The notes under the pieces: generated by a model
What the model was told of the DNA's origin: nothing
Database searches by the model: none
The model's input: only the letters and a program-made list of their open reading frames with translations
Program-made: the position numbers and the translations under genes
Assembly: GCA_964414145.1 (NCBI GenBank)
Contig: CAYPVH010000006.1
Location: 16,357-80,356 of the forward strand
Direction of reading: 5' to 3'
Length of the DNA stretch: 64,000 nt
Origin: an uncultured Gammaproteobacteria bacterium
Lineage (GTDB): Bacteria; Patescibacteriota; Microgenomatia; UBA1406
In this document: positions 5,491-27,437 of the stretch, piece by piece
How the letters are laid out: each line of letters opens with the position of its first letter
How positions within the stretch are numbered: position 1 is the first letter of the stretch

Positions 5491-5491
5491 T

Positions 5492-9970: not shown

Positions 9971-9981
9971 GCTATTTACTT

Positions 9982-10557: not shown

Positions 10558-13500
10558 ACTTTTTGGCTTTCGACAATTTTAATTTCTTCTTCAGTTAACT
10601 CATACAATTTATAAACCATTTGGTTGATCTTTTTTTCTAAGTTCACTTGCTCAATAGGTGGATTCTGAGGATCGTAAGAATGTTGTTTTGTTATTTCTAA
10701 AATCTGATCAACTAATTTGACAATTTTATTTTGCTTTGTTTCATCAACAAGTTTTATAGGAGTCTCCTCAAGAGGTTTTCCATAAAGTTCAAGTGAGTTA
10801 CCTTTTTTCTTTCCTCTGTAATAAAACCATAAAAAGTAAAGTTTGCTATTAAGTAGAGCCAATATATATTTAAGTTTGAAACTCTCTCTAAACTCTTCTC
10901 TTAAAGTTGTGATCATTATATCTGATTGTTCATAGTTCTTATCATTCTCGTAAGCAAATATGTTTTTCTTAGCCCTTCTAGAATTAGTTATTTTTTCTTC
11001 TTCGAAATACCACCTATCTCTTGGCCAATGAAGTGAATACCAAGGAATCCTACCGTTTTTACATTCTCGTTTCTCTTGTAATATTTTTTTATATTTTATT
11101 AGGTGCTCTTTCAAATTTGGAAAATCATCCAAGTTATGATCTTTAGTTAAATAGATTATAAAATAGTCTTCTTGTTTTAATATGTAGTATCTAAAGATAT
11201 GAGAATTTTTATAAAATGGATGAACAATTTTTCTCTCTCCATCATTCAAATTAAGATTTTTTAATTCATCTTTATTCAATACGAATATACCCTCACCTTT
11301 AACGCCATTAATTTTGTATTTCTGCATGTGTTTAGTAGTTAAAACATCGGCGCCCGACACAATACCTTGCTTTATATGACAAATATTCCCTAATAGGTAG
11401 CCTACATCTTCTATCTTATTAAGAATCTCATTTGATTTACTTTTTGAAACTCCAATTCCCTCAATTCTTAAATAGTTTTCCACTCCATCATATAAAAATT
11501 TTTGACCAACCTCATAGTAGTTTGTTTTTTTATCGTTTCCAAATAGAATGTTGTTTAATATATTTTCATCTGCTTGTCCCACTTGTTTTGTCAGAATATT
11601 TTTTGACTTCAATAAACGGTCATTATTTTTACTAAAAATAGTTATCATGTTATGTTGACCTAGCGCTGATTTAAATATTTTCAACTCATTAAAATTAATT
11701 AGATTTAGAATAACTGCTCTTTTTTTCAAATCCTCTCTCAATTTTTTAGCACCATATGCTGTGACATAATAATTGGTTGTAATAAAAGCTACATAACTAT
11801 TTTCTTTTGCAATGTTTAAGGCTAAGTGAAAAAAGAAGTAAAACAAATCCATTTTTCCCTGATAAAAGTCATTAAGGTTTCCTTTTGCAATTTCTCTAAA
11901 TATTTCTTTATTTCCCTTTTCTCCAACATAGGGTGGATTTCCAATAACTATATCGAAACCACCTTTTTCTTTAAACACATCACTAAATTCAAGTTTCCAA
12001 ATGAAAAATGGCTTAATATTTTTATGTCTAAGCTTAATTAAATTGTTAAGCTCTTTAATCTTCTTCTGCTCTTTAAATGATTCCTCAATGATTTCCCATT
12101 TTAAGTTATCAATATATTCTTTTAATGTTTGCTTCTTTGTCTTTTGTGATTCATCTACATATTGACTTATCTTATTTTGTAAATCTTCAAGTTTAATTTC
12201 TGAATTTGATTTACCAAAACCAAAAGGCAACTGCTCGGCTTTAAACTCTTTTGATTTCTTAAATATTCCCTCATCAAACAACTTAATTCCTTCATATTCT
12301 GAAATCAGACTATTACCTTGCATTATTTTGTGATCAAGGTTGGGAAGTGGACTTGGAGTAGACTCCTCTACAATAAGAGTTAGCCACAAACGTAGTTTGG
12401 CAATTTCAACTGCTCCTGGGTCTATATCAACTCCATGAATTGAATTAGAAATCGCATGTTTTTTAAGTTGATAGTCGGTTAGTCTTTTATCTAAATAAAT
12501 GTTTAGGATTTTTCTGGCTCTGACAATTTCATTAATCATCCCCAATGGAAAAGCTCCTGAGCCGACAGCTGGATCAGCAACCTTAATGTTCATTAGAAGC
12601 TCATCCAACTCATTTGCCTTTTTTATAATAGATTCAGCCAATAAGAGCTCATATTTGCCAGTATACTTATAACCTCGTTTTTGCTTTTCTCTAATCTTCT
12701 TTAAGGCAACACTATCATTTTCAATAATTCTATCGCCCGTATAAATAAAGCTCTCAATGTCTTTTCTTTCAATCCCTTCAGTTTCAGACTCTAAATAATT
12801 GATCAGACACTCTTGGCACATATAATGCACAATTTCTCTTGGGGTATAAAAGGCACCTTTGCTTTTTCTATCTCTTACTTGGAGTAAATTTTCAAAAACC
12901 TTACCAAGCATTTCTGGATCAACAGCAACTTCTTTTTCTAAAGGTTCATTTTCATTAACAGTGAAGTTATACCTATCAAAAACATCTAAGATTCCGTTAC
13001 CCTTATCTCCATTTTTTGTGGGAATATTATTGGAGAACACTTCATCTGGGATGTCGATGTTGGTAGTTTCCCATGCATAGTCATTCATTGGCTCAAACAA
13101 ACCACCATTTAAAAATGGCATCTTACAATTATTGAGTTTTGGGTAAAATGAATTCTTACCTCTATCCTGAGCTAGTGCTTCATAAAACAATGGCTCTAAT
13201 ACATCATTGAAAAAGTTTTTTCCATATTTTGATCTTCTCTCAAAAAGCTCTCTTAAAAAGTTTTTAGGTCCATCTCCCCAAGACTTATTTGGTGCAACTC
13301 CAAACCAACCTTTCTTTTGAAGAAAATACAAGAAGATAATCTGACCCATTGTCTTCTTTGCAAAATCAACAGTATCGATTTCCTTAGAACTAAACTCATC
13401 TTTAACACTTTCATCATTCAAAATGATTTTCTCTAAATTCTCTTTGAAAACTAAGAAGAGTTCTTTGTATTTTTCAAAGAACTCATTAGTTACGACTTCA

Positions 13501-14060
13501 ATGTCAAACGCAGATTCAAATTCTTCAAGGTTTGGTTTTTGATTGCTTACCAGTAAATTAACAAATCTGCTCTGTGCAGTATGTGTGCCTTCATTTTTCC
13601 CGACCAAAAAAGACCATCTTTTTGCTGGTGTAATTTCTTCTTTAGTAGTAATCTTATTATTTTTAACTTCTAGAGAATGCTCAAGTTTTATAAGTGAGAA
13701 ACGCCAATCATTTTTACTCTGAGGGATAAACGCAACTAGTGCGGCTAGTTTATTATTTGATTTTAAGTAGTCTGCAACGAAATTTCTTTGGGCTGTTCTT
13801 GCTTTATCCAGTGATTTATCATTTGTTAAATTTACTTCTAAAATATCTATCTTTTGTGACTTATTATCCTCAAAATAACCAAGCACTCTATAGTTATCAA
13901 TAAATGACTTGAAAGAATCTTTTACATACGTGTTGTCAACATTTTTATTGACTCTTGTAAAATCTTTTAGCAAATTGCTAATAAAGAGTTGAAATTTACC
14001 ATCAGTAAACTCTGTACTAAAAACTTCTTTTATTATTCTTTTTGCATCACTTTGTTTCAT
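10554..14060 (-). CDS. PglX/Type IIG/Type ISP-like N6-adenine DNA methyltransferase (Eco57I family, gamma-class) with C-terminal target-recognition region
   Basis: FYTPREIVHYM, VADPAVGSGAFP (motif I), GVDIDPGAVEIAKLRLWL, and catalytic NPPY (VIGNPPYVGEKG). N-terminal LDKARTAQRNFVADYL..ALVAF..DWRFSLIKLE resembles PglX/Type IIL N-termini. 1168 aa. Confidence 0.8.
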   Translation of the reverse strand: MKQSDAKRIIKEVFSTEFTDGKFQLFISNLLKDFTRVNKNVDNTYVKDSFKSFIDNYRVLGYFEDNKSQKIDILEVNLTNDKSLDKARTAQRNFVADYLKSNNKLAALVAFIPQSKNDWRFSLIKLEHSLEVKNNKITTKEEITPAKRWSFLVGKNEGTHTAQSRFVNLLVSNQKPNLEEFESAFDIEVVTNEFFEKYKELFLVFKENLEKIILNDESVKDEFSSKEIDTVDFAKKTMGQIIFLYFLQKKGWFGVAPNKSWGDGPKNFLRELFERRSKYGKNFFNDVLEPLFYEALAQDRGKNSFYPKLNNCKMPFLNGGLFEPMNDYAWETTNIDIPDEVFSNNIPTKNGDKGNGILDVFDRYNFTVNENEPLEKEVAVDPEMLGKVFENLLQVRDRKSKGAFYTPREIVHYMCQECLINYLESETEGIERKDIESFIYTGDRIIENDSVALKKIREKQKRGYKYTGKYELLLAESIIKKANELDELLMNIKVADPAVGSGAFPLGMINEIVRARKILNIYLDKRLTDYQLKKHAISNSIHGVDIDPGAVEIAKLRLWLTLIVEESTPSPLPNLDHKIMQGNSLISEYEGIKLFDEGIFKKSKEFKAEQLPFGFGKSNSEIKLEDLQNKISQYVDESQKTKKQTLKEYIDNLKWEIIEESFKEQKKIKELNNLIKLRHKNIKPFFIWKLEFSDVFKEKGGFDIVIGNPPYVGEKGNKEIFREIAKGNLNDFYQGKMDLFYFFFHLALNIAKENSYVAFITTNYYVTAYGAKKLREDLKKRAVILNLINFNELKIFKSALGQHNMITIFSKNNDRLLKSKNILTKQVGQADENILNNILFGNDKKTNYYEVGQKFLYDGVENYLRIEGIGVSKSKSNEILNKIEDVGYLLGNICHIKQGIVSGADVLTTKHMQKYKINGVKGEGIFVLNKDELKNLNLNDGERKIVHPFYKNSHIFRYYILKQEDYFIIYLTKDHNLDDFPNLKEHLIKYKKILQEKRECKNGRIPWYSLHWPRDRWYFEEEKITNSRRAKKNIFAYENDKNYEQSDIMITTLREEFRESFKLKYILALLNSKLYFLWFYYRGKKKGNSLELYGKPLEETPIKLVDETKQNKIVKLVDQILEITKQHSYDPQNPPIEQVNLEKKINQMVYKLYELTEEEIKIVESQKV

Positions 14061-14064
14061 AAAA

Positions 14065-17000
14065 TTAGTTACCTATAAAATATTCTGAGAGAATAATTTC
14101 CTTTTTTGCAGAAGCGTTCATATTTATTCCATTATCTGAATCTTCTAAAAATTCTGATGGAAGAGTAGTTTTTAAAATCCCCAAAATCTTGATTGGATTA
14201 TTAATAATCTCAATATTTTGAGATAGCTCTTGATAAATTTTCTGAGTTACTTTTTTAGGGATGCCTCCGTTATTAAGTTCAATGATAACTCTTCGCACAT
14301 ATTCTTCGTCATCTTCAGTAAACTTTTCATAATTTTTTACTTGCTTAGCATTTAAGATTTTAAAAAGCCTAGCGGCATTATCTCTACTTCCTCTTTTGGT
14401 TGAAAATTCATTCTCTTCATAATCTTCTACCTGATTTAACATCGAAAGATTCTTTTCAAGTAATTGGTAGAATAACTCATCAATTGTCATTTTCTTTTCG
14501 CTAACATTGGCATGCAATGTCTTTGCTGCTTCAATAAAGTCTATTTCAAGCGCATCAGTAGAAAAAGAGCTTTCGACAATAAAGAATTTCTGAATTTTTC
14601 CTTTTCTAAAGTATGTTAAAAGCTCTGTTTTATAATTCTGTGACTTTCTTGCAGTGCGAGCTTTCTTGGGGAGTCTTTTTATTTTTGCAAACAGTTTGGG
14701 ATCATTATCTCTGATATCTCTGATTTCTCGTAAGTATCCCAAGTAGCTTTTTTCATTTTGATCTTCTCCCTCAATCATTTCTTTTGAAAGTATTCGACTA
14801 AATAAACTATGTCCTTCTGGAACTTCATCGTCTGTAAGAAGCTTTGCATCAGCACCCAGTAAAGTAATAAATGCTTGAATTTTTGCTTCGGCTAGTTCTT
14901 TTAGTTTAATTTGCTCGTTGGACTGCTCAGTAGGGAATAAAGTATAGGTATAAATTTCTTTATGCTTGGTATCGACTCTATTTATACGGCCCACTCTTTG
15001 CATAATCTTGGTGGGATTCCAAGGAATATCGTAATTAATTACAACATTGGCTTGATGAAGGTTAGCACCTTCAGATAAAACGTCAGTAGTTATTAAAACT
15101 TTATAGTCATTTTTTATGACTCTGGAATTTGCATCAAAATTTTCCATCACAATTTCTCTCTCTGCTAGAGAACTACCACCTGAAAAATAAATGATTTGGT
15201 CTGGAAAAATATCTTGCAGGTTTTTTAGTAGGTATTCTGCCGTCTCTTTTGATTCAGTAAAAATAATAGACTTACCACTTTTTACTGGTTCTTCTAAAGA
15301 TAGTTTTTCTTTAAAAGCTAGAATCTTGGGATCCCTAGAGATATTAGCCCAAAGTTTCTTTATATTTCTCAAAATTTCTAAATCTTTTTGTAAATTCGTA
15401 ATATATTTTTCAGTGAAATCCTTAGACTTAAATTTTTCAGCTTTATTATTTTCTACTAATTTGTCGATAGATTCTAAATTTCCTTCATCTAAATAGTCAA
15501 ATATTTTTTGTATATGGCTTCTACTGACATATACACTTCCATTTTCATATGTTTTAATAAATTTTTCGTAGGAAGAAATAAATCGATCAATTGTTTTATT
15601 AAAAGCGTAAAAGCTACTTTCCAGTCTTTTTATCAACAGCATTTTCATGAATTTCATCATGTTTTTCTGTTTCTGTTTTTCTTGGTTAGTAATTCCTTTG
15701 TAGTATAAAAGAGGAGTGTAGCGTGAGTACTTAAAATCATTAGTAATTATTTTTAAAGTTTCAAAAAAAACAGCGTCTTCTTCTTTGCTAAATTCGTAAA
15801 ATATTGGTGCAGGATCAGCAATTTTAGGAAAACTCATTTTTCGATTTTGCAGATCATCACCATAATATTTAATAATTTCTGTTCGGGTTCTTCTTACCAT
15901 TAAATATTTAAGAACTTTTTCCCTAATCAACCTAGAATTTTCTTTTGTTACATCAATGTATCTTTGCTTATCTCTCTTTCGATCTAGATCCTTTAATTTA
16001 TTATCCAAAACCTTAAAAAATCCTTCTAAATTCGGCAAGTTAGGAATGGTACTTTGCTTTGATCTTTGAAAGAGTTTTATTTGAGACAGTAGGTCTTTTG
16101 GTGAGTTATTATATGGAGTAGCTGTAACAAGAATAACCTTTTTCCCTCGGCATATTTGAGCAAGCTTTGCATAGGTTTCAGTTTCTTCTGTGCGGAATCG
16201 ATGTGATTCATCAACTAAAACTATATTATATTCTTTATGTAAATTTTTATCGATAATTTTATCCAGCATTCCAATTGATTCACATCTATAGTCTTTAGAT
16301 CTAAAACCAAAGTTTTTAAAAGAATTTTTCCAGCTACCTTCGTTATTTTCATCAATCAAGTGCGGAGGTGCTAATACCAAAATTCTACCTGCTAGCTCTT
16401 GGCAAAGCATAGTACCCATATATGTTTTGCCAAGACCAACAACATCAGACAAAAATACACCACCATACTCGTCAACAATTTTCTTTGCGTTGATAACAGC
16501 ATGATCTTGATATTTCAGTTCTTTGAAATTATCTGGTCTGTAATTGTGACTTAGATTTTCTTCTTCATTAATTTCTTCTCTGAAGTATTCATAGAGAAAT
16601 TTCAGATAGAGTTCGTATGGTGTAATGTCTTCTCTAATCCAAGTATCCTTTTCAATTGTCTCAATATATTTTTCACAAACATCAATGCCATGTTCCCAAA
16701 GTTCATTAAATTTATTCAATGCAAATTTGTAGTCTGAAGGGTTTTTAAGCTCAACATTAAATTCTAAGTTATCTATCAAACCACTTTGTGTAAAATTACT
16801 GGAACCAGTAATGACTCTCCCAAGATCTCGATCATCTTCATTAAAGGTCATTATGTAGAGTTTTGAATGAATTTTTTCTTCAGGGTAAGCTCTTATTTCA
16901 AGCTTTCCAGACTTTGCCCATTCAAGAAACTTATGTACTCCTGTCTCAACTTCATGGTTGTTTTCACTCTTATCCATCTCATTTTTAATACTCTCACCAA

Positions 17001-17250
17001 TATCATCACCAATTTCCTTGTAGGATTTTGAGACTTGAATAAGATCGTAAGTTTGCTTATTGGTACTGATTCCGATTAAGATTCTAATCTTTTCAGTTTT
17101 TTCGAGCTGAGGGTATATAGCGTAAAAACCACTGGTATAGAAATAACCAACTAAAATATCAAATAGACGAGTATCTTTGACCAAAACATTAAATCTACTT
17201 TTTAGGTTTTCACCATTCTCATTAGTAATAAATGTTAAGTCTGTACTCAT
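14065..17250 (-). CDS. PLD-family nuclease domain fused to SF2 (DEAH/SNF2-like) helicase
   Basis: N-terminal HKD motif HSKLYIM..GSSNFTQSGL; helicase motifs GLGKTYMG (I), VLVDESHRFR (II), LVTATPYNN (III), QRVGRINR (VI); 1061 aa; 5 nt upstream of the MTase gene. Confidence 0.8.
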   Translation of the reverse strand: MSTDLTFITNENGENLKSRFNVLVKDTRLFDILVGYFYTSGFYAIYPQLEKTEKIRILIGISTNKQTYDLIQVSKSYKEIGDDIGESIKNEMDKSENNHEVETGVHKFLEWAKSGKLEIRAYPEEKIHSKLYIMTFNEDDRDLGRVITGSSNFTQSGLIDNLEFNVELKNPSDYKFALNKFNELWEHGIDVCEKYIETIEKDTWIREDITPYELYLKFLYEYFREEINEEENLSHNYRPDNFKELKYQDHAVINAKKIVDEYGGVFLSDVVGLGKTYMGTMLCQELAGRILVLAPPHLIDENNEGSWKNSFKNFGFRSKDYRCESIGMLDKIIDKNLHKEYNIVLVDESHRFRTEETETYAKLAQICRGKKVILVTATPYNNSPKDLLSQIKLFQRSKQSTIPNLPNLEGFFKVLDNKLKDLDRKRDKQRYIDVTKENSRLIREKVLKYLMVRRTRTEIIKYYGDDLQNRKMSFPKIADPAPIFYEFSKEEDAVFFETLKIITNDFKYSRYTPLLYYKGITNQEKQKQKNMMKFMKMLLIKRLESSFYAFNKTIDRFISSYEKFIKTYENGSVYVSRSHIQKIFDYLDEGNLESIDKLVENNKAEKFKSKDFTEKYITNLQKDLEILRNIKKLWANISRDPKILAFKEKLSLEEPVKSGKSIIFTESKETAEYLLKNLQDIFPDQIIYFSGGSSLAEREIVMENFDANSRVIKNDYKVLITTDVLSEGANLHQANVVINYDIPWNPTKIMQRVGRINRVDTKHKEIYTYTLFPTEQSNEQIKLKELAEAKIQAFITLLGADAKLLTDDEVPEGHSLFSRILSKEMIEGEDQNEKSYLGYLREIRDIRDNDPKLFAKIKRLPKKARTARKSQNYKTELLTYFRKGKIQKFFIVESSFSTDALEIDFIEAAKTLHANVSEKKMTIDELFYQLLEKNLSMLNQVEDYEENEFSTKRGSRDNAARLFKILNAKQVKNYEKFTEDDEEYVRRVIIELNNGGIPKKVTQKIYQELSQNIEIINNPIKILGILKTTLPSEFLEDSDNGINMNASAKKEIILSEYFIGN

Positions 17251-17520
17251 ATTTACATCCTTTTCTATATAGGTTATTCTTAACTAAATTCAATTGAACT
17301 CACATTCAATTATAAAACAAATGCTTTTACTTTTATATTATATGTGTGTGATTGCTCTGGGCCCAAAGCTTTTCACATAAATCTTTCTTTGAATTCAAAC
17401 TTAATAATCACATAAATTTTATTAACCTATAGGACTATTATAACTTAGTTTTAACAAAAAATACTCATTGGGAGAGAAAAAAAATAATTAAAAAAACACT
17501 ATAATATTAATAATGTGATG

Positions 17521-17540
17521 AATTTGGTGTTCACCAAATT
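17521..17540. promoter_or_regulatory. Perfect 9-bp-arm palindrome (candidate operator) in a divergent promoter region
   Basis: AATTTGGTGttCACCAAATT, between the divergently transcribed helicase operon and the ParB/MTase gene; tandem aatgaaaaatgaaaaatgaatgaggtgtgaggtgtag follows. Confidence 0.4.
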
Positions 17541-17693
17541 TAAGCGGTTATTGAAAACCACTGAATCACATCTCTTCAAATAATGAAAAATGAAAAATGA
17601 ATGAGGTGTGAGGTGTAGTTTTTAGTAGCCGCTTTTTTTGTTGCTGCTAAAACTTAGAAAGTAAGTGAGTTATTAACAGTTACTAGTTTAAAT

Positions 17694-19022
17694 ATGGAAA
17701 ACAAAACGAAACTTAATGTCGAATATGTCGACATAAACAAACTAAAAGCAGCGGAATATAATCCACGAAGATGGGAAAAAGCTGCAGTTACAAGTTTAAC
17801 TAAAAGCATTCAGAAACATGGCTTAGTAGACCCTGTTATAGCAAACAGCTTTCAGGAAAGATATGGAGTAGTTATTGGCGGACACTTTCGCTTAAAGGTT
17901 GCAAAGGACTTAGGTTACAAACAAATTCCAGTTGTCTGGCTAAATATTTCAGAGATTGAAAAGGAGAAAGATTTAAATCTGAGACTAAATAAGGCAGTTG
18001 GAGATTGGGACTGGGATTTATTGAAAAGCTTTGATGAGAATCTGCTTTCAGACATTGGTTTCTCCTCTGAGGAGCTCGATAAAATCTTTGATTTTGATAA
18101 CCCTGAGTTGTTTGATCTTAATAAAGAATTAGAAAAGCTGAATATAAAGGAAGTTAATACTAAAAAGGGAGATATTTATCAGCTGGGAGAGTCAAGATTA
18201 ATGTGTGGTGACAGTACAGTTGAAAGTGATGTTTTGAAGCTGATGAATGGAGAGAAGGCAGATCTGTGCCTAACAGACCCGCCATATATACTAGACTACC
18301 TTAATGGCAAGCAAAGACATGGGAAACCAACCGTTGGTTTTGGGGCAAAGAAAAACCGAAGGTATCTGGAGACGGATATTTTGCCTCCTGACTTTACTGA
18401 GAAATGGATGGCTAATATTAGCAAAGTACAAAATAAAGACTTTTCCATAATAGTATATGAGAACTGGAAAAACATAAGAACTATATGGGGTGAAATGGAG
18501 AAATACTGGAAGGTAAGAAATATGATTGTCTGGCATTTGCCAAATAGAGTTCAAGGCTTCTCAGCTAAAAGCAAGTTTTTCAATAAACACGATATTGCAA
18601 TGGTTGGAACAAGCATTAACTCAATTGATTTAAATAATGAGCAGGAAGAAGAGCTTCTTCAAAACGAATATGAGACAGCTCTCTTTGCAATATCAGGCAA
18701 GGCATACTGGGAACCATATAAAAAGGGGAAAAAACATTGCCCAACAGACTTTATTGAATACAAAGCAAGCGACGAAAAATCCTCAGGGCAAGGAGTGATC
18801 TTCGGTACAAAACCAATAGATATATTAGTTCCATATATTAAGGTATTAAGTAGAAGGGGCGATCTATTAATTGAACCTTTCTCCGGAAGCGGCAGTACTT
18901 TAATTGCAGCAACAAAGTTAAAAAGAAGGTGTTATGGTATGGAAAAGTCTCCTGTGTATTGTGAAGTAATTATTAAACGTTTTGAAAAGTTTACCGGACT
19001 GAGAGCTAAAAAAATAACATGA
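17694..19022 (+). CDS. ParB-like N-terminal nuclease domain fused to N6/N4 DNA methyltransferase (phage/plasmid-type orphan MTase)
   Basis: ParB-N block VIGGHFRLKVAKDLGYKQIPVVWL; MTase motif IV LCLTDPPYI; C-terminal SAM-binding IEPFSGSGSTLIAA typical of PF01555-type methylases. Confidence 0.75.
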   Translation: MENKTKLNVEYVDINKLKAAEYNPRRWEKAAVTSLTKSIQKHGLVDPVIANSFQERYGVVIGGHFRLKVAKDLGYKQIPVVWLNISEIEKEKDLNLRLNKAVGDWDWDLLKSFDENLLSDIGFSSEELDKIFDFDNPELFDLNKELEKLNIKEVNTKKGDIYQLGESRLMCGDSTVESDVLKLMNGEKADLCLTDPPYILDYLNGKQRHGKPTVGFGAKKNRRYLETDILPPDFTEKWMANISKVQNKDFSIIVYENWKNIRTIWGEMEKYWKVRNMIVWHLPNRVQGFSAKSKFFNKHDIAMVGTSINSIDLNNEQEEELLQNEYETALFAISGKAYWEPYKKGKKHCPTDFIEYKASDEKSSGQGVIFGTKPIDILVPYIKVLSRRGDLLIEPFSGSGSTLIAATKLKRRCYGMEKSPVYCEVIIKRFEKFTGLRAKKIT

Positions 19023-19534
19023 AAAGCATAGAGAAAAGAATCAGTAGAAACAAAAGAGAGCTTCTAAAACATTTAGAGACTATGCCAATTGTTCAGATTG
19101 CCTGCAAGAAGGAAGGTGTTGGCCGATCAACTTACTATCGTTGGCGAAAAGAAGATCCAGTGTTTTGTAGAGAAGCAGACAAAGCACTTTCGCAGGGTAA
19201 AGCACTGATGAATGATTTAGCAGAAAGTAAGTTATTAACTGGAGTAAAAGAGCAGAATATGACTGCAATAATATTTTGGTTGAAGAATAATCACCCTAAT
19301 TATATGAGTTCTTTTAACAAACTAAATAAGGATCAAATGGAAACTCTACTAGACATATTTGTCAATGCATCAACAATTAATAATTACAACAGTTTAAAAA
19401 AGATATTTAACCTAGAGATACCAGTTAAAATAATACGTCCAGTATTAAGCCTGTTAAAAATCATTGTCAGTAACAAAAGAGAGAATAATAACTACAGAAA
19501 ATTAAAATTATTGTCTGAACTCAAAGGAAAATGA
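19019..19534 (+). CDS. Phage-like HTH protein (terminase-small-subunit-like or regulator)
   Basis: GVGRSTYYRWRKEDPVF..AIIFWLKNNHP pattern common in phage small terminase/HTH proteins; start overlaps the upstream stop. Confidence 0.35.
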   Translation: MKSIEKRISRNKRELLKHLETMPIVQIACKKEGVGRSTYYRWRKEDPVFCREADKALSQGKALMNDLAESKLLTGVKEQNMTAIIFWLKNNHPNYMSSFNKLNKDQMETLLDIFVNASTINNYNSLKKIFNLEIPVKIIRPVLSLLKIIVSNKRENNNYRKLKLLSELKGK

Positions 19535-20157
19535 CAAACAAGTCTATATTCAGCAAATTCAAGTTAACAACTAAGGAAAAAGTAATTCTTACATATCTTA
19601 AAATTGAAGAAAAAAATAAGATTGTTAATCCGTATGAATTTAATATGTTAGCAGGAATTAAATCAAAAGAAGAAAAAATATCGTTTAAAAAGTGGGTTGT
19701 TGTACTAAGATATTTATTAGAGAATGATTCGACTGCAATAACATACTTCTACAAAATCTTATATCTTCACAATGTTTTACAAATAAAAAGTCAAAACAAA
19801 TCGATTACAGAGGGTATGAAAGATGCATATAAAGGATTTTTTCTTTCAGTTGCTATTTCATATTCACTCTCGCTTCTTTTTAAACGCTTAATTAATTTGA
19901 AAACATCAAAATTAATAATAGCAGTTAGGCCACTTGATGAAGGTAAGCTAGATATATCAAAAAACAAAACAAGGTTCTATAAAGAATATATTAATTATCA
20001 AAATAATATTTCAAATAGTGTTATAGATGTACTTGGAGATATTTCATATAAGTTAGAAAAGTATGAGTATATATCTGAGGCTTTAATATGCAGGTATGCA
20101 GATGAGACAATAGACTATTTAAACAGTTATGTTTTACCCTTTACAAAAAAACCTTAA
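19531..20157 (+). CDS. Hypothetical protein
   Basis: 208 aa ORF translationally coupled to the upstream gene. Confidence 0.4.
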   Translation: MTNKSIFSKFKLTTKEKVILTYLKIEEKNKIVNPYEFNMLAGIKSKEEKISFKKWVVVLRYLLENDSTAITYFYKILYLHNVLQIKSQNKSITEGMKDAYKGFFLSVAISYSLSLLFKRLINLKTSKLIIAVRPLDEGKLDISKNKTRFYKEYINYQNNISNSVIDVLGDISYKLEKYEYISEALICRYADETIDYLNSYVLPFTKKP

Positions 20158-20366
20158 ACCAAGTCTCGTACCTTTACCTTAAGTTTTTTTGCAATTCTAT
20201 TTAATAAAGGAAGTGAGGGGTTGTTTCTTCCTTGTTCAATATACCCCATATACACCCGGCTAATACCAACCATGTCTGCAAGCTCTTCTTGTGATAATTT
20301 ACGCTCAAGTCTGTATTTCTGAATTTTGTTACCGACTTTTTTAGCAACACGGCCAAGTTTACCCAT
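20154..20366 (-). CDS. XRE-family helix-turn-helix transcriptional regulator
   Basis: LSQEELADMVGISRVYMGYIEQGRNNPSLPLLNRIAKKL, a canonical HTH_3 domain; 70 aa. Confidence 0.8.
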   Translation of the reverse strand: MGKLGRVAKKVGNKIQKYRLERKLSQEELADMVGISRVYMGYIEQGRNNPSLPLLNRIAKKLKVKVRDLV

Positions 20367-20507
20367 ATTGGCATTATCGTTAGAGAAGGTGAATATATCT
20401 ACTAAGCAACACTTAGCAGTGTGTTTAGTATTGGCCTTGCAATTAACCTATTCATAATTTATTATTGTCATCAGAAATACTCTAATTTAGACTTAGCAAG
20501 AAAGGAG

Positions 20508-20980
20508 ATGAAAAGAAACTGAAAAAACTACTTAAATGGGGAGGTATAGCTTTAGTTGTGATTATTGTTATAGGTGCTGTTGCAGGTGGTGGTTCAAGTT
20601 CTACTCCCAACTCAAATACTCAGGAGGTGAAGAAAGAAAGTTCAAATACTGAGACAGAGAAAGAAGTAGCTAAAGAACCTGAAGAAATATCTGTACAAGA
20701 ACTTGCAGATGACTTTGACGGCAATCAAGTTGCAGCAGAGTCAAAATGGGGAGGAAAATTTGTAAAGTTTAGTGCTGAAATATCTAATATTACTGATACA
20801 GGTATATCCTTTACCGATGTAGCCACAAAAGATTTTTCAATGACTCAAATTAGTTGCAAGATAAAGGATAAGAATCAGCTTATGCCTCTAAAGAACGGCG
20901 AGACAGTTACAGTAAAAGGTGTTATTGGTGATCAAATGATCGGTGTAATAGAACTAAAGGAATGCGAGGTTGTTAATTAA
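20508..20980 (+). CDS. Small membrane-anchored/secreted protein; start region ambiguous
   Basis: ORF track begins at GTG 20558, but a strong RBS AAAGGAG plus ATG at 20508 sits one frame off, just upstream of an A6 run. If corrected, this gives MKRN..KKLLKWGGIALVVIIVIGAVAGGGSSS (TM anchor followed by a Ser/Thr-rich linker). Confidence 0.45.
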
Positions 20981-21000
20981 TGTAAAGACAGTCTTGTGAA

Positions 21001-21033
21001 AAACCGCTCTATAGAAGAGCGGTTTTTCTTCTG
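21001..21033. terminator. Bidirectional rho-independent terminator between convergent genes
   Basis: aaAACCGCTCTatagaaGAGCGGTTtttcttct. Confidence 0.6.
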
Positions 21034-21037
21034 TTTA

Positions 21038-21454
21038 CTACTCACTTATATTTTCATACCGTCCATCTTCATAAGGTGGGTAACAAATCTCATAAGCGGT
21101 TAAACTTGAATCATCATCTGCAAACCATTGCATTGTCTCGTCTATATTAACAATAACACTTATTGGTCTACCATCTGCTATATAAACTGTTTTTCCATTT
21201 ATCTCCAGTCTACCTTTTCCAGAAATATATCCTTCTATTGTTTTATTTCCCTTTAATACTCTCTGGAGTGGAGTATGTTTGCCAGGCGAGATACGAATAA
21301 TACCTAAGTCTCTGCTATTATCTCCTACAAATCTATAAACATCACATTCAACACCATCTATTACTTGAATTGTCTCTATAAATTCTACTGGCAATTCTTG
21401 GCCTTCAAATAGAAATACTTCTATTGGTTTAAATGGAGCTTTTTCTGCTGTCAT
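21038..21454 (-). CDS. Hypothetical small beta-rich protein
   Basis: 138 aa ORF with good start context; no recognisable motif. Confidence 0.4.
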   Translation of the reverse strand: MTAEKAPFKPIEVFLFEGQELPVEFIETIQVIDGVECDVYRFVGDNSRDLGIIRISPGKHTPLQRVLKGNKTIEGYISGKGRLEINGKTVYIADGRPISVIVNIDETMQWFADDDSSLTAYEICYPPYEDGRYENISE

Positions 21455-21556
21455 AAACTTAATTTATCAAATAGTAAGCAATAATACTAACCCAATATAA
21501 TTGAGCAACCAAAATGCATGATATAATATATTGTAGAAGCAAATTTTAAGCATTTA

Positions 21557-21587
21557 TAGCTCCGCTTTTAAGCGGGGCTTTTTTTAA
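21557..21587 (+). terminator. Orphan hairpin plus T-run (terminator-like), not after any called + strand gene
   Basis: aGCTCCGCTTttaAGCGGGGCttttttt; followed by RBS AAAGGAG plus a 52-aa ORF (21615-21773). Confidence 0.4.
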
Positions 21588-22056
21588 TAATTAAATATAA
21601 AGGAGATGAGAAAAATGAAGAAAAATAAAATAGACAGTGAAATTAAAACAAGTTCTTATTTTAAAGAGACAGAAGCATTATTTAATAAGATAGTTATAGC
21701 AGTAAATTCATTAGAGGAAAGAGTAAATATACTAGAATGTAGAGATGAACAAATCCAAGAGCAGGATAAATAAGAAAAAAGTAAATATTCGTAGCAATCT
21801 AAATTCTAACAGACTATATGAGATTGCTACGAATTATTTTGAATATATAAAGTTCTTCATCACTTGACTTCCCAAACCCTTCCGGTATTCTTGGGTTAAA
21901 TGAATGATTACAGTAATCTAAATAAGCATAAGAAGCAATTAATAAAGCTAATAAAAAGATGTGAAAACTACTTCTATAAGTACCTACTTACAGAAGACAA
22001 GGAATACATAGATAAGTTCTTTGCTATATCTGGAAAACTAAAGAGGATAATCCAAT

Positions 22057-23367
22057 ATGATAAACGGAAACAATAACATAAATTACTGTCTTTATGCCAG
22101 AAAGTCATCTGAATCAGATGAAAGACAAGCGATGAGTATAGATGGACAGCTAAAAGAAATGTACTATGTTGCCAAAAAAGAGAAACTAAATATATCAGAT
22201 GTTATTACAGAAAGTCACTCTGCGAAAGAGTCAGGTGAAAGACCAGGCTTTAATCAGTTAATAACAAAAATCACAAAAGGAGATTTTAATGCAGTCCTTA
22301 CTTGGGCACCTGACCGATTAAGCAGAAATGCGGGTGACTTAGGAAGAATAGTGGACCTAATGGATCAACAAAAGTTAGTTCAGATAAGAACTCACTCCCA
22401 ATCATTTAGTAATAATCCTAATGAAAAGTTCCTGCTTATGATTCTCTGTTCTCAAGCCAAACTAGAGAATGATAATAGGGGAATAAATGTTAAACGTGGA
22501 CTCAGAAGTAAATGCGAAGCAGGTATCCGTCCGGGTGTAGCTCCTGTTGGATATATAAATGTACATAAAGAAAATAGAATAGCAACTATTGATATTGATA
22601 AAGAAAGAGCAATGATTATTAAGGAAATGTTTAAGAAAGTTGCAAATCAAGGATATTCCGGACGAATGGTAAAGAAATGGTTAGATAATCTTGGTTTTAG
22701 AACAAAGGGTGGATACAGAATTGCTTTAAGCAAAGTATATACAATACTAAAGAATCCCTTTTACTATGGAGAATTCAAATATGGCGGTAAATGGTATCAA
22801 GGAATTCATGAGCCACTAATTACAAGAAGCCTGTTTGACAAAGTACAGATAGAACTTGAAATAACCCCAAGACAATGGAATAAACAGACATTTCCCTTCA
22901 AAAAACTATGTAAATGTGGCAGCTGTGGTGGTAGTGTAACAGCAGAGATTAAGTACAGAAGAACAAAGAATGGAAAGATTAATACTCATATATATTATCA
23001 CTGCAATAGAATTAAAAAGTATGATTGTAAAGAACCGTATATTAGAGAGGAAGACCTTATTAAACAACTAATATCTTATTTACCTAAACTTAAACTAGAT
23101 ATTAATTACTTATACAGAGAATTTGAAGTAGAAATAAAAAGACTGCAACATTTAAAAGCAACAGTTATTGATAAATATAATCCCTACAATATTCAACTCA
23201 CTCCACATAATACGAGTAGTAACAAAATGAATCTATCTAAAACTGATGTAGTGAAAGACTATGTTTTACACGTTTTAACATATGGTACACCTGAGGAGAG
23301 ATTGAAAATATTGAAAGGAGTGAAAACTAGGTTTTTGCTCTCAAAGAGAAGTCTTAAGACTATCTAA
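22057..23367 (+). CDS. Large serine recombinase (resolvase/invertase-type catalytic domain plus recombinase/Zn-ribbon extension)
   Basis: N-terminal CLYARKSSESDERQAMSIDGQ matches the YAR(V/K)S..Q catalytic-serine motif; 436 aa; Cys cluster CKCGSCGG..YHCNR in the C-terminal region. Confidence 0.75.
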   Translation: MINGNNNINYCLYARKSSESDERQAMSIDGQLKEMYYVAKKEKLNISDVITESHSAKESGERPGFNQLITKITKGDFNAVLTWAPDRLSRNAGDLGRIVDLMDQQKLVQIRTHSQSFSNNPNEKFLLMILCSQAKLENDNRGINVKRGLRSKCEAGIRPGVAPVGYINVHKENRIATIDIDKERAMIIKEMFKKVANQGYSGRMVKKWLDNLGFRTKGGYRIALSKVYTILKNPFYYGEFKYGGKWYQGIHEPLITRSLFDKVQIELEITPRQWNKQTFPFKKLCKCGSCGGSVTAEIKYRRTKNGKINTHIYYHCNRIKKYDCKEPYIREEDLIKQLISYLPKLKLDINYLYREFEVEIKRLQHLKATVIDKYNPYNIQLTPHNTSSNKMNLSKTDVVKDYVLHVLTYGTPEERLKILKGVKTRFLLSKRSLKTI

Positions 23368-23375
23368 GAAAGGTG

Positions 23376-23396
23376 GGGCGGCCTGTGGCCGCCCCT
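23376..23396. repeat. Perfect GC palindrome GGGGCGGCCtgtGGCCGCCCC immediately after the recombinase stop
   Basis: 9-bp arms, no T-run; at the junction with the GC-rich VOC gene. Confidence 0.4.
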
Positions 23397-23405
23397 GTTA
23401 TTGGA

Positions 23406-23831
23406 TCAACCGACACTGATAAACTCAAGCTTAAAAGTAAGCAGCGCCGGAATCTCCACGAACCACTTGGTTCGCTCCTTGTTGGCAGGCTCAATACGAG
23501 CCGTCATACCTGCGAGACCTGCCCACTTTTCCACTTCGTGCGCCGTCAGGTCGGCATCAAAAACCTTTATTCCGAGATGCGCTCCTGGAAGAATTGCCGG
23601 GTCATCAGGGTGACCCAGCTCTTCTGTAAGCTGTACTCGAACTTTTTGGTTCTTGGGCCTTACGAAACGCGCACATCCCCAATCGCCTTCGACCCTTGAT
23701 TCTGTGTCTTCAATCCAACCTAGATGGTTGGTAAAAAAGAACACAGCACCTCGCATCATTCCGGTTCTGACCAGGAAGGCAGCATGGTCAAGACCGGCGC
23801 CTCCAATGAGGCTCCTCAGACTCTGTGTCAT
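23406..23831 (-). CDS. VOC/glyoxalase-bleomycin-resistance-like protein, GC-rich (foreign composition)
   Basis: 141 aa. Local GC clearly above 50% against a ~33% background, which is why several spurious opposite-strand ORFs are predicted here. Gly/His-rich beta-alpha-beta style sequence (HLGIKV.., HAAFLV) consistent with the VOC fold; assignment tentative. Confidence 0.45.
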   Translation of the reverse strand: MTQSLRSLIGGAGLDHAAFLVRTGMMRGAVFFFTNHLGWIEDTESRVEGDWGCARFVRPKNQKVRVQLTEELGHPDDPAILPGAHLGIKVFDADLTAHEVEKWAGLAGMTARIEPANKERTKWFVEIPALLTFKLEFISVG

Positions 23832-23903
23832 CTGACACCTCCTCGTGATTTGGGTTCTTAACCCTATTTTGATTATACCACAAATATTATAGGCTTATAT
23901 TCT

Positions 23904-24055
23904 TAGAACCAAGCACTATTTCTAAAAGAGTTTTTTATGGAGTTTTTCATTCTCTAGGCCGTAAATAGGCTCTTGAAGGAATTATGCATTTTTCTAGCAA
24001 ACCATAAAAGGCCATAGTAAGCAGGTAGTTGGGTCTTGCGAAACTGTTGATAAAA
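23904..24055 (+). repeat. ~152-bp P arm direct repeat, copy 1
   Basis: tagaacca..tttttatggagtttttcattctcta..gttgataaaa is ~92% identical to 25149-25300; ends at core tgcggag. Confidence 0.7.
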
Positions 24056-24093
24056 TGCGGAGCAGTTGGGTCTAGCACCCTCATGTCCTGATA
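24056..24093 (+). repeat. att-like core plus P' arm, copy 2
   Basis: tgcggag + cagttgggtctagcaccctcatgtcctgata. Confidence 0.6.
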
Positions 24094-24145
24094 GTCTAAA
24101 ACAAATTGAACTCACAAAATTTAATAATCTATAATATTAGCAACA

Positions 24146-25099
24146 ATGCAGGAAGAAATAACAACAACACCCGATAACTTTGATGGAGAATTAGATTCAA
24201 AGAATAATGGTGGTGAGACTCAAAAAAGTGACAAGTTAGCTCCTTCAATTGAAAGGGCAAATAATATTCAAAGATATATTGTTACCAGAAATGGCCAGAT
24301 GGTAGAGGTAACATTTGATCAAATGACACAAGAAGAAAAATCGGTTTTTGATGATTCACCAGAACTTGTTCAATTTGATCAAGACCCTTTAATGAACCCT
24401 AGTGGATTTTTTGATTATTTAAAAGTTAAAAATCCTAATTATAAATACGATGATTTAACTTCGCCTGAGATGATTAGGAAAGCAGTGGAATGGGCTCAAG
24501 AAAAGGGATTTGATCCATCTGAACTATCACCTGCGCAAATTCTGCTTTCGCAAGATTATACGCCAGGAACAAAGACTAAAGCTGAAATCGCACAAGAAGT
24601 TATAGAAGAAAGAGTAGAAAGATTACTATCGAAAAAAAAAGAATTGGCTCATATTCTTGTTCCTACCGGAAATAGATATTTTCATGCAACGCCAGACCTA
24701 GATACTGTTAGAGCTATTTTTAAAGAAGGGCTTTACTGTGATAGTAGATTAGGCCTAGATGGATCTGCAGTTCCTCTTGCTTCTTTGCCAGCTGATTCTG
24801 GTGATGCTTCTAGAGATATGATATTAAATCTCAATGTTAGAAAACTTGCAGAACCACATCGAGGACATAGATATGAAGTTATTATAGATTTACCATCTCT
24901 TACTTCACAACAAATGGCTGATTATGAGTCTAGAGCTGCAAATGGCGAAAATGTATCAACTAGCAGTTATTTTGTTGAAACTAGAGATCATGAAGTTGGG
25001 GGAGAAGGTGCTGTAATAACTTATGATGCAACTCTACCTCCAAAATACTTAAAAGGCTATATTGACCTAAATACAGGAGAATATTATCTTAAAGAATAA
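24146..25099 (+). CDS. Hypothetical acidic protein (cargo of satellite element)
   Basis: 317 aa ORF with good ATG; no recognisable motif. Confidence 0.45.
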   Translation: MQEEITTTPDNFDGELDSKNNGGETQKSDKLAPSIERANNIQRYIVTRNGQMVEVTFDQMTQEEKSVFDDSPELVQFDQDPLMNPSGFFDYLKVKNPNYKYDDLTSPEMIRKAVEWAQEKGFDPSELSPAQILLSQDYTPGTKTKAEIAQEVIEERVERLLSKKKELAHILVPTGNRYFHATPDLDTVRAIFKEGLYCDSRLGLDGSAVPLASLPADSGDASRDMILNLNVRKLAEPHRGHRYEVIIDLPSLTSQQMADYESRAANGENVSTSSYFVETRDHEVGGEGAVITYDATLPPKYLKGYIDLNTGEYYLKE

Positions 25100-25148
25100 G
25101 TTATGACTATTAAGATCGTATAATTTAATTAAAATAACTTTCATACAT

Positions 25149-25300
25149 TAGAACCAGACGCTTTTTCTAAACAAGCTTTTTATGGAGTTTTTCATTCTCT
25201 AAGCTGTAGATAGGCTCTTGAAGGAATTATGCAATTTTCTAGCAAACCATATAAGGCCATAATAAGCAGGTAGTTGGGTCTTGTGAAACCGTTGATAAAA
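25149..25300 (+). repeat. ~152-bp P arm direct repeat, copy 2 (abuts tRNA-Ser 3' end)
   Basis: see 23904-24055. Confidence 0.7.
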
Positions 25301-25303
25301 TGC

Positions 25304-25389
25304 GGAGAGGGTGGGATTCGAACCCACGTTCGGCGTTAACCGAAACACGCTTTCGAGGCGTGCGCAATCGTCCGCTCTGCCACCTCTCC
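25304..25389 (-). tRNA. tRNA-Ser (anticodon CGA)
   Basis: minus-strand read GGAGAGG-TG-GCAGAGCGGAC..-CACGC-CTCGAAA-GCGTG-long variable arm TTTCGGTTAACGCCGAAC-GTGGG-TTCGAAT-CCCAC-CCTCTCC-G. 7-bp acceptor stem, canonical T-loop, anticodon loop CU-CGA-AA; CCA not encoded. Confidence 0.85.
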
Positions 25390-25502
25390 AATTTAGTTGT
25401 CAGTTCTCAGTTGTCAGTTATAAGATATCGGATATCAGATATCAGTTCTCAGATACCAGATATTACATAAATATTATACCTTAAGAATATCGCCTTAATG
25501 AT

Positions 25503-27437
25503 TTATAAAACGTATTTTTTTGTATTGCTTTTGATTATATAGTCAAGTAGTTCACTCAGGCTAATACTAGCGCCACAAACCACCTTGTCGGCGCCACCGT
25601 AATAAAGATAAACTAAGTCCCCTTTTTGCACAAAACCACAGGGGAAAACTACATTATTAACTACCCCTTCTTTTTCAAACCAAGCTTCTGGCTCTAAAAT
25701 TGGGTAAAGGGTACGACCAATAACTTTAGACGGGTCATTTAATTCTAGAAGTAGGGCGCCAACTCGGTAGTGCCGATCTATTTTACTTATGCCATGATAA
25801 AAAACCAACCAACCCTCTGCAGTTTTTATGGGAGGAGTGTTGATGCCTATTTTTACTGCGTCCCAGTAACCGGCGCGCGGGGTAATTATTCCTTCCGAAC
25901 CTAAAAAATGGCCTTCTTCAAATTTTAAATCGGTAACCATGTCAATAACTATGTTTGGCTCTATTCGATGAAAAAAACAGTAGTTGCCATTAATTTTTTC
26001 GGGGAACAGAACGCCATCTTTATCCATAATATTTGGGGGTGAGATGATTTTAGGTGGCGCCCAATTTTGCCAGTTACGATTTAAAAAATCGGGAACGGTA
26101 ATGTGGGTAAAGGCCAGTTGGGCTAATCGGCCATTATGGGCTGTGTAGCACATATAAATAATGTTATCAATTAACGTGAGTCTAGGGTCTTCAGCGCCAT
26201 GGGGTAAACCAGGCTCAGCAGGCAATTCGAAGGTTTCCCGAAGGGGATAAATTGGCTCTGGTAAGCGCTCATCAATATACAAGCCGTCGATACTTATTGC
26301 CAACCCCAGGTGTGAAACGTTATTTTCAGATTGCGTTCGGTAAACAATGTAAACTTTGCCATTTATTTCGACTGCCGCCGGGTTAAAAACAGCTTGGCTT
26401 TCCCAGCTGTTTTGGGGAATTCTTTCCAGAAGCGGATTATTGGGAAACTTATGGCACTTGAGTGTTGCGGCGGTATTTGTTTCCATTTTACTCAGTAAGT
26501 TGGGCAACTTAATACTGGCAACGGCACATACCGAGTCGGCGCCACCGTAGTAAACTTTTAGCTGATTGTTCTCAACCAGCGCCCCTTCTGGAAAAACTAT
26601 GTTTTCTACCTGACCCGTTTTTTCGTAGTCTGTTTGGGGAATAAGTAAGGGGTTTTCTACCCGACCAATAATTTTTTTGGGATCCTGTAAATCCAGCAAA
26701 ACGCCTTCGATACGAAATTCTGTGGGAATATTACTACTTGAATAGTGCTTCATGTATGAATATATGATAAGCCAACCCTGTTCAAGCTTTATAGGAGGCG
26801 CCCCAAATTCTACATGGTCGCTATTGACCCGTTTCAGATTAAAGGTATGCTGGTTTAAATTGGCATACCAGTCTTGCCAAAAAGACTGATCCCACAATGT
26901 TTCTATATTTTTAAATTGAGCAATGGCAGTTGAGGCAAATGGCGTATCGGTGTTTACCGAAAGCATAACTGTATACAAGTCATTTATTTTTTGTGGGAAT
27001 AAACTCATGGCCTTGGCGTTAAAAGGTGTTACCAAATGCTTTTCTTCTACATTTTCAAGGTCGCTGCTTATGGCTAAGGCAACCTTAATACCATGGCTTG
27101 AATGAGGGTAATTGGCTAGCGCGGTATAGAAAATGTAATACTTGTTGTTAATGTAAGTAACCCGCGGATCTTCACAGCCATACCTTTCCCACGAATATTT
27201 TGGTTTAATAAATTGTGTTCGATCTGTAAAGTTATAACCGTCAATACTCTCTGCTTTACCAATTGTTGATAATCTTAATTCTTTTGTATTAATGTTTACC
27301 ACGTTACTCATTGCTCGGTATAACATGGTGTATTTATTGGCTTGCTTAACCACACAACCGTTAAATGTGGCAAAGCCTTCCCAGTCGTTTTGCAAATTTG
27401 GCTTTAAAATTGGGTTTTGAGGGTAACGAATTAGCAT
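25503..27437 (-). CDS. Tandem two-domain GH130-family glycoside phosphorylase/hydrolase-like protein
   Basis: FNPAAVEINGKVYIVYRTQS..LGLAISIDG..GAEDPRLTLIDNIIYMCYTAHNG matches the GH130 (DUF377) signature nPaav..YRa..G.S.DG..EDPR..YmtYta. Present twice in 644 aa. Confidence 0.7.
   Translation of the reverse strand: MLIRYPQNPILKPNLQNDWEGFATFNGCVVKQANKYTMLYRAMSNVVNINTKELRLSTIGKAESIDGYNFTDRTQFIKPKYSWERYGCEDPRVTYINNKYYIFYTALANYPHSSHGIKVALAISSDLENVEEKHLVTPFNAKAMSLFPQKINDLYTVMLSVNTDTPFASTAIAQFKNIETLWDQSFWQDWYANLNQHTFNLKRVNSDHVEFGAPPIKLEQGWLIIYSYMKHYSSSNIPTEFRIEGVLLDLQDPKKIIGRVENPLLIPQTDYEKTGQVENIVFPEGALVENNQLKVYYGGADSVCAVASIKLPNLLSKMETNTAATLKCHKFPNNPLLERIPQNSWESQAVFNPAAVEINGKVYIVYRTQSENNVSHLGLAISIDGLYIDERLPEPIYPLRETFELPAEPGLPHGAEDPRLTLIDNIIYMCYTAHNGRLAQLAFTHITVPDFLNRNWQNWAPPKIISPPNIMDKDGVLFPEKINGNYCFFHRIEPNIVIDMVTDLKFEEGHFLGSEGIITPRAGYWDAVKIGINTPPIKTAEGWLVFYHGISKIDRHYRVGALLLELNDPSKVIGRTLYPILEPEAWFEKEGVVNNVVFPCGFVQKGDLVYLYYGGADKVVCGASISLSELLDYIIKSNTKKYVL

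Follow-up and report, generated by a model that had tools for sequence, protein, structure and literature searches.

Several kinds of bacterial mobile element travel with partners that encode no recombinase of their own. According to PMC3146451, which cites Pavlovic et al. (2004), the first description of cis-mobilizable elements (CIMEs) and their tandem accretion concerned ICESt1/ICESt3 of Streptococcus thermophilus. The ssrA islands of Dehalococcoides include 15 without an integration module, which have been proposed to be CIMEs that are moved by accretion with islands encoding CcrB-like large serine recombinases (LSRs) (PMC3146451). In a third system, ACME (arginine catabolic mobile element) has been described as mobilised by the ccrAB genes of the staphylococcal cassette chromosome (SCC) element SCCmec, and excision was measured for SCCmec alone and for the SCCmec/ACME composite (PMC7029739). 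Here we describe a related arrangement in a 64-kb stretch of Patescibacteria DNA (contig CAYPVH010000006.1, positions 16,357 to 80,356; hereafter the window), in which a 1.25-kb unit at 24056-25300, termed E2, lies between a 19.9-kb island, termed E1, and a tRNA-Ser(CGA) gene. We consider, with moderate confidence, that E2 is a recombinase-less, CIME-like cassette with ends derived from a close sibling of E1, placed in tandem with E1 at the 3' end of tRNA-Ser(CGA).

E2 resembles CIMEs in being bounded by attachment (att) sequences of the co-resident element (138/153 positions identical at the right end and 28/31 at the left, both fitting the family consensus described below), and in carrying no recombinase or transfer functions, its single open reading frame (ORF) of 317 aa giving no match above threshold in four libraries (Pfam, PHROGs, NCBIfam and PADLOC). 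It also stands in tandem with a competent element, with composite movement possible, and CIMEs are thought to be derived by deletion, as we propose below for E2. The differences lie in the enzyme and its sites: classical CIMEs depend on a tyrosine integrase and have attL-type sites that are usable as targets, whereas E2 is associated with an LSR and has an internal junction of attP type.

The ssrA islands of Dehalococcoides, with their CcrB-like LSR DsiB (PMC3146451), are similar in forming tandems at the 3' end of a tRNA-like gene with repeats of that end as their limits, and their integration module contains a ParB-domain protein and a DNA-modification gene, as does E1. However, their target is the transfer-messenger RNA gene, their repeat is 20 bp and their crossover is in the T-loop, whereas in the window the target is tRNA-Ser, the core is 7 bp of acceptor stem and the half-site is a diverged tRNA-like sequence. 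They also have a second small recombinase, DsiA, for which the window has no equivalent, and the window differs further in its Patescibacteria host and in a fixed-length arm of 153 nt. The psiSCC, ACME and COMER units (PMC7029739; bioRxiv 10.1101/336396) are likewise recombinase-less, bounded by direct repeats and in tandem with an LSR cassette that mobilises them. In contrast to E2, which is 1.25 kb long and located at tRNA-Ser beside a distant CcrB relative, these units are found at rlmH (orfX), are associated with CcrAB or CcrC and measure tens of kb. Membership of the SCC/psiSCC class itself was rejected, given the tRNA-Ser target and a score of 101.7 bits with the CcrB model against a cut-off of 900.

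An earlier note on this DNA had likened E2 to phage satellites or to clusters of attC sites lacking integron-integrases (CALINs). This likeness is poor, and CIMEs and units of the psiSCC/ACME type are the better fit. Phage satellites such as P4 and the phage-inducible chromosomal islands encode their own integrase and hijack the capsid of a helper phage; E2 has no integrase, and there was no virion-type match to PHROGs or Pfam in E2 or in the E1 ORFs scanned. CALINs have folded attC sites and depend on the tyrosine integron integrase; the repeats here are tRNA-3'-like sequence and a 153-nt arm with no convincing conserved fold, and the recombinase is exclusively of the serine type. What is shared is reliance on the functions of another element, and CALINs too are without a recombinase of their own.

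Locus layout, junctions and recombinase

The only tRNA gene of the window is a tRNA-Ser(CGA) on the minus strand (25302-25389), called by ARAGORN and scored at 55.8 bits with the Rfam tRNA model. The 7-bp core TGCGGAG, which is the reverse complement of the last acceptor-stem bases of this gene, is present at 4155, 24056 and 25301, the third copy being the 3' end of the gene itself. With P and P' denoting right-end and left-end sequences respectively, and numbered for E1 and E2, the order is chromosomal flank, core, P'1, island E1, P1, core, P'2, unit E2, P2, core and tRNA. The limits of E1 (4162-24055) are taken from the core copies, and its contents from Pfam and PADLOC. A repeat search returned a 178-nt direct repeat (23903-24080 and 25148-25325, the copies 1245 nt apart) and a 38-nt repeat (4155-4192 and 24056-24093). 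The P arms of E1 (23903-24055) and E2 (25148-25300) are identical at 138/153 positions (90%), against 34/100 directly outside them, and the P' segments (4162-4192 and 24063-24093) at 28/31 positions (90%), against 36/100 outside.

The left outer junction (4155-4192), of attL type, joins the chromosomal flank to a core (4155-4161) and the P' half-site of E1 (4162-4192; P' profile E=1.4e-11). The middle junction (24056-24093), of attP type, comprises a core (24056-24062) and the P' half-site of E2 (24063-24093; E=2.5e-10), and the right outer junction (25301-25389, minus strand), of attR type, has a core (25301-25307) that overlaps the 3' end of the intact tRNA-Ser(CGA). The ends of E1 are thus of attL type (4155) and attP type (24056), and those of E2 are of attP type (P1-core-P'2, 24056) and attR type (P2-core-tRNA, 25301). 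When the attP of E2 is reconstructed as P2-core-P'2, about 5 of 50 central positions differ from the attP of E1. By hand inspection, the E1-E2 junction contains a direct repeat, GGGTCT at 24031 and 24068, which is not mirrored, and imperfect inverted half-sites were not seen there. Directly left of the outer junction lies a GC-rich stretch (3976-4154), by inspection clearly above the genome value of about 34%; it gave no Rfam match, and the 74-aa ORF covering it gave no Pfam match.

The locus has a single recombinase, encoded in E1 at 22057-23367 on the plus strand. Its 436-aa product has the domains expected of an LSR, namely a resolvase catalytic domain (Pfam Resolvase PF00239, 2.3e-21), a recombinase domain (Recombinase PF07508, 4.5e-16) and a zinc ribbon (Zn_ribbon_recom PF13408, 5.3e-09). 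Its best NCBIfam match is to CcrB, a distant one at 101.7 bits against the cut-off of 900, and the match to XisF is also far below cut-off. No tyrosine integrase (Phage_integrase) domain was present in any E1 ORF scanned. A lambda-type attP with arm sites was rejected because the enzyme is of serine type and no tyrosine recombinase occurs in the scanned ORFs, and since the island recombinase is an LSR rather than a lambda-type integrase, the middle junction can be taken as a complete attP-type site. The earlier note had described E2 as having no recombinase and had placed the recombinase in the neighbour at 22057-23367, and both statements are borne out; its use of P and P' arms in the lambda sense was a misnomer. 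It had also regarded the arms as complete on both sides. This is correct for the right arm, which is a full module with its 128-nt spacing, but not for the left arm, which has only the core-proximal segment of about 38 nt and is without the distal box described below.

These junctions are reproduced in independent assemblies. One contig (L002, JGI 3300076594) covers 23550-25605 and so contains both E2 junctions, two others (L021, Logan SRR12447078; L022, JGI 3300076582) cross the junction at 24056, and a fourth (L018, JGI 3300076591) crosses that at 4155; by BLAST all four are 99-100% identical to the window. The same junctions were found in at least five independent assemblies, and the configuration is alike in all of those sampled. 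Exact-protein look-ups of the flanking genes returned only short contigs from sister samples with this same configuration, one look-up being empty. Because independent contigs from sister samples carry the same junctions, E2 is not an assembly artefact, and because the two P arms differ at 15 positions they do not represent a collapsed or duplicated assembly repeat.

The element family and its conserved ends

Recombinases 69-72% identical to that of E1 are encoded on one IMG/VR contig (L003) and in Patescibacteria metagenome-assembled genomes (L004-L011 and L015, annotated as Woesebacteria and others). Wherever the contig reaches far enough, a minus-strand tRNA-Ser is located downstream of the recombinase, and the island directly abuts this gene in L003, L004, L005, L007, L008 and L010. 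These tRNA-Ser genes have GCT, GGA or CGA as their anticodon, or an unusual ACT. The ACT calls are at 6691-6778 of L004 and 12820-12907 of L005, and in both genomes a normal tRNA-Ser(GCT) lies a few kb from the ACT-called gene. Each element has a different gene between its recombinase and its P arm, and in L010 this gene is on the opposite strand. Mobile elements of the Patescibacteria (candidate phyla radiation) are poorly described, and this locus and its relatives constitute a family of tRNA-Ser-targeting LSR islands with defence genes.

The P arm is a module of fixed length that opens with TTAGAACCAA; a distance of exactly 128 nt separates this from GGGTCTTG, which lies about 20 nt short of the core. 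All 11 of the family copies aligned have this spacing, with a mean column identity of 83%, and the module is therefore more strongly conserved than the recombinase gene itself (about 68% DNA identity). Both P arms of the window, including that of E2, contain the full module in register, the 128 nt in E2 running from TTAGAACCA to GGGTCTTG. In the description given by PMC12286644, sites of about 40-50 bp suffice for serine integrases, and the 153-nt arm is far longer than the sites that these enzymes are known to need. A structured RNA was rejected as an explanation for the arm (RNAalifold energies of -14.0 and -5.3 kcal/mol for the two strands, with little covariation), and the only Rfam match was to the tRNA. 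A micro-ORF was likewise not convincing, as the short frame on the tRNA strand ending ...WF* is interrupted by an in-frame stop in L015 and shows numerous non-synonymous changes. Scans of IMG/VR with P-arm and P' patterns returned L003, which was already known to us, a left end (L033) and two high-GC chance matches.

The left half-site has the form GCGGAG-CA...yGGGTCTrGmACC at both P' positions of the window (4155 and 24056); L005 has three further sites of this form and L033 has one. A profile built from these six sites, in three genomes or contigs, recovers those six only in the window and the other loci. Beyond the core, the P' half-site can be placed in register with the T-arm region of the tRNA, with 16/31 positions identical (shuffle p = 0.0013). 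A distal box GACAAATGGGAC(AGTATAAAAA), located about 90 nt inward of the core, is present in E1 (starting at 4246), in L033 and in cassettes A and C of L005, and is absent from E2 and from cassette B of L005. In E1 this box, GACAAATGGGACAGTATAAAAA, occupies 4246-4267; an exact 12-mer from it recurs at 17188 and 19533 of L005, and it is visible in L033. From its sequence, the left arm of E2 would appear intact where a recombinase subunit would bind, yet it is shorter than the left ends of full elements.

At four attL-type or empty sites (window 4155, L005 19619, L033 and L008 13298), the chromosomal (B) halves have only the base before the core in common. The enzyme therefore seems indifferent to the chromosomal half of its site, which fits the use of four different tRNA-Ser isoacceptors by the family, and such tolerance on the B side would make secondary integration beside a resident element plausible. 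At the internal junctions M1 and M2 of L005 there is dyad symmetry (AGTTCGAATCC / GGTTCCAGACC) centred on GC[GG]AG, which suggests that the crossover dinucleotide may be the GG within GCGGAG. The conserved 153-nt arm and the tRNA-mimicking left half-site bear on how serine integrases choose their sites and how tandem arrays are formed, and site choice by these enzymes matters for genome-engineering tools.

Segments without a recombinase are also found in relatives of E1. In L009, a complete P arm and a core are followed by a degenerate tRNA-like half-site (11994) and then by a 3.0-kb recombinase-less segment encoding DUF5320, DUF134 and a membrane protein of 630 aa; the genuine tRNA-Ser(GCT), at 15016, has no more than 16 nt of P arm in front of it. 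This segment is an analogous tandem partner that has decayed, so that decay of such partners does take place in the family. In L005, three recombinase-less cassettes of 1.45, 0.9 and 1.4 kb (15838-19619) lie downstream of a second tRNA-Ser(GCT) and are separated by attP-like sites of about 55 nt; their genes encode a Na/Ca exchanger, a flavodoxin and a cupin, and a bPH_2 protein and Hsp20, respectively. By these sequence comparisons the architecture of the window is one case of a recurring pattern, and its recurrence in L009 and L005 supports the reality of the 1.25-kb unit. The family islands gather recombinase-less partner cassettes in the way that SCC elements and the Dehalococcoides ssrA islands do. 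Such a partner arrangement is already known elsewhere, and is here found in an under-studied phylum.

Proposed origin and possible movement of the 1.25-kb unit

The most probable origin of E2 would be a full-size sibling of E1 that lost the whole stretch beginning just inside P' and ending with the recombinase gene. The variable cargo gene and the P arm of the sibling would have been kept, leaving a one-gene unit of 1.25 kb. The 317-aa ORF stops 48 nt before the P arm of E2, in the position of the variable cargo slot of full elements, and this position fits an origin by deletion. The tandem itself might have formed by either of two routes. A non-canonical integration beside the resident element could have taken place through B-side tolerance or by use of the tRNA-like P' as a surrogate target, or homologous recombination could have occurred between the P arms, of about 150 nt, of two sibling elements.

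To our knowledge, and by extension of the directionality model of serine integrases, LSRs do not accept mixed pairs, attP x attR among them, as substrates. In the outline of that model given by PMC5499577 and PMC5814800, serine integrases alone recombine attP x attB, attL x attR is recombined only with a directionality factor, and hybrid att sites are otherwise auto-inhibited through coiled-coil motifs. As the ends of E2 are of attP and attR type, a non-canonical pair, its solo excision in trans is doubtful and cis-mobilisation is favoured. The earlier view of E2 as a mini-element served by its neighbour is thus upheld for the anatomy of a recombinase-less unit, and is doubtful for excision of that unit by itself. 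Only the outer pair, 4155 x 25301, would be a canonical substrate for excision, since the attL/attP pair of E1 would also be non-canonical. With a directionality factor, the LSR would recombine attL (4155) with attR (25301) to release a 21.1-kb composite circle that contains E1 and E2 and has two attP sites. Such a circle would re-enter through either attP, and E1 and E2 would stay linked.

Several points weigh against a CIME-like origin and composite movement. The proposed deletion is deduced from position alone; E2 has no trace of a recombinase, and its interior shares nothing with E1. The canonical LSR rules do not readily explain how the tandem formed. If the distal box matters, E2, which is without it, may fall short of full competence even in cis. 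The Ccr recombinases, one group of LSRs, have been described as less strict, and solo excision therefore keeps some room. Neither an excision product nor an empty site or alternative junction was found, in searches where the junction scan missed the window's own sites too: a degenerate 35-nt pattern covering empty sites, single-element sites and circle junctions, run on metagenome contigs, returned two unrelated tRNA-Ser genes only, the source being absent from that collection. The flanking GH130 gene has its closest homologues in genomes annotated as Levybacteria or Roizmanbacteria; these are 65% identical, are not syntenic and have no adjoining tRNA-Ser, and the collections contained no relative close enough to show an empty site. 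From these homologues and those of the recombinase, the host probably belongs to the Microgenomates group of Patescibacteria.

A less likely explanation is that E2 is an immobile relic, the fixed scar of an old integration, with arms kept by chance or, for example, as the 3' flank of the tRNA, and immobile even with E1. Consistent with this, the 10% difference between the P arms indicates that the tandem is not recent, the GC content of the 317-aa ORF (35%) is like that of the host (34%), and the configuration is the same in all sampled assemblies; in L009, decay has reduced the P arm of the analogous segment to 16 nt. In the Dehalococcoides study, too, some tandem islands are considered to be now fixed (PMC3146451). 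However, attL and attR at the outer ends look intact and the recombinase ORF is full-length, so that composite excision would carry E2 along regardless, and the 90% identity of the arms falls to background exactly at their limits, which suggests constraint over drift.

It is rather more doubtful that E2 is autonomous in trans, excising and integrating as its own circle with the recombinase of E1, in the manner of a satellite. Both of its core-proximal half-sites are intact, its reconstructed attP is close to that of E1 over the central 50 positions, and its P arm has the complete length of the family module and aligns with it in register. If the enzyme is tolerant on the B side, a free mini-circle entering the attR of the island would come to lie proximal to the tRNA, as observed. 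The three small cassettes in a row in L005 and the described mobilisation of ACME by SCCmec-encoded ccrAB (PMC7029739) also agree with movement in trans. Two contigs from sister samples, L024 and L020, stop exactly at att boundaries (24063 and 4193); these ends could be branches of the assembly graph, that is, cells with another junction, or a coincidence, and as such are a weak indication. Against these points, the process needs recombination of an attP-type with an attR-type site, which canonical serine integrases, by extension of the model in PMC5499577 and on general understanding, do not perform with or without a directionality factor. E2 also has no distal left-end box, and no circular junction was seen, with the same limit on the junction scan as above. 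The earlier note had looked to independent copies of the ORF with such arms, and none was found: the three homologues for which the surrounding DNA was read (L001, L025 and L026; 49%, 51% and 37% identity) have no such arms, on contigs of only 1-1.8 kb.

A more general scheme, which we hold to be about equally tentative, is one of portable docking, in which a tRNA-like P' and an enzyme blind to the B side would let circles, including recombinase-less mini-circles of one gene, stack at tRNA-Ser. E2 and the L005 array would then be instances of an integron-like capture of cassettes by a serine recombinase, and the 153-nt arm would be an additional cis module, for example a platform for the directionality factor. 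Finally, an assembly artefact or a recent tandem duplication of the island end, which the earlier note had named as a possible refutation and which two copies of a repeat of about 180 nt at a distance of 1245 nt might suggest, can be dismissed given the 15/153 differences between the arms, the unique sequence between the copies, and the junctions reproduced at 100% identity in 3300076594, 3300076582 and SRR12447078, one contig crossing both.

The cargo protein and the genes of the island

The ORF at 24146-25099, on the plus strand, is the only one of at least 60 aa wholly inside E2. The earlier note had given these coordinates and had described an acidic protein of 317 aa with no recognisable domain, all of which is correct; the predicted pI is 4.68, with 55 acidic and 34 basic residues. 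A promoter-like site upstream (24106-24135, plus strand; TTGAAC-18-TATAAT) has 10/12 matches in a consensus scan and is a consensus match only. An exact 13-mer, AATTGAACTCACA, has only two copies in the window, one (24104-24116) in the -35 region of this site and the other (17292-17304) within the main divergent intergenic region of E1; two matches were obtained in 1/100 shuffles, and the 13-mer may serve both places as an operator or promoter.

The 317-aa protein has one close relative, at 49% identity, in a set of 5.8 billion clustered proteins. A full HMM search of 1.84 billion representative proteins returned 41 matches to the family, and a second, word-indexed search with alignment added one further protein. 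The near-invariant residues of the family (H180, T182, G195, L196, A208, H238, L249, P250, G304 and D307) suggest that the protein may be an enzyme. An AlphaFold model based on an alignment of 35 sequences has a mean pLDDT of 87.6, with the N-terminal ~40 residues disordered. Foldseek searches of PDB and BFVD gave no neighbour for this model, the best values being E = 0.25 and E = 0.02 (TM about 0.1), respectively, and sequence-profile searches with the family gave no match in PDB or Pfam. The protein would thus belong to a small uncharacterised family with a confidently predicted fold and no detectable structural neighbour. Some relatives are fused to a PP2C phosphatase (proteins P0011 and P0014 are listed for the family), and another forms the C-terminus of a 4375-aa multidomain protein with PP2C and GNAT domains. 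Nothing was seen that connects the protein to recombination, and it is cargo.

Among the homologues with surrounding DNA, the gene in L001 adjoins a gene fragment that, from its translation, may be PhzF-like. Positions 1-97 of L025 contain GC-rich hairpins ending in CCTTCCGCCA, about 35 nt before the homologue P0003, which is 51% identical; this start resembles a tRNA-Ser-like gene of which the contig end has left only the 3' end, and Rfam gives no match.

E1 is a defence island. It encodes a type IIG restriction-modification enzyme (10554-14060; PADLOC 1.6e-192), an HKD-Snf2/DrmD-like helicase (14065-17250) and a ParB-N6/N4 methylase fusion (17694-19022), together with helix-turn-helix (HTH) proteins, a variable cargo gene and the P arm. 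The ParB-methylase gene is kept in the related element L003, at about 68% DNA identity. The variable cargo slot of E1, which separates the recombinase from the P arm, contains a 141-aa ORF on the minus strand (23406-23831) that gave no match in Pfam, PHROGs, NCBIfam or PADLOC; with a GC content of 52%, against about 33-34% for the genome, it looks recently acquired from a high-GC source.

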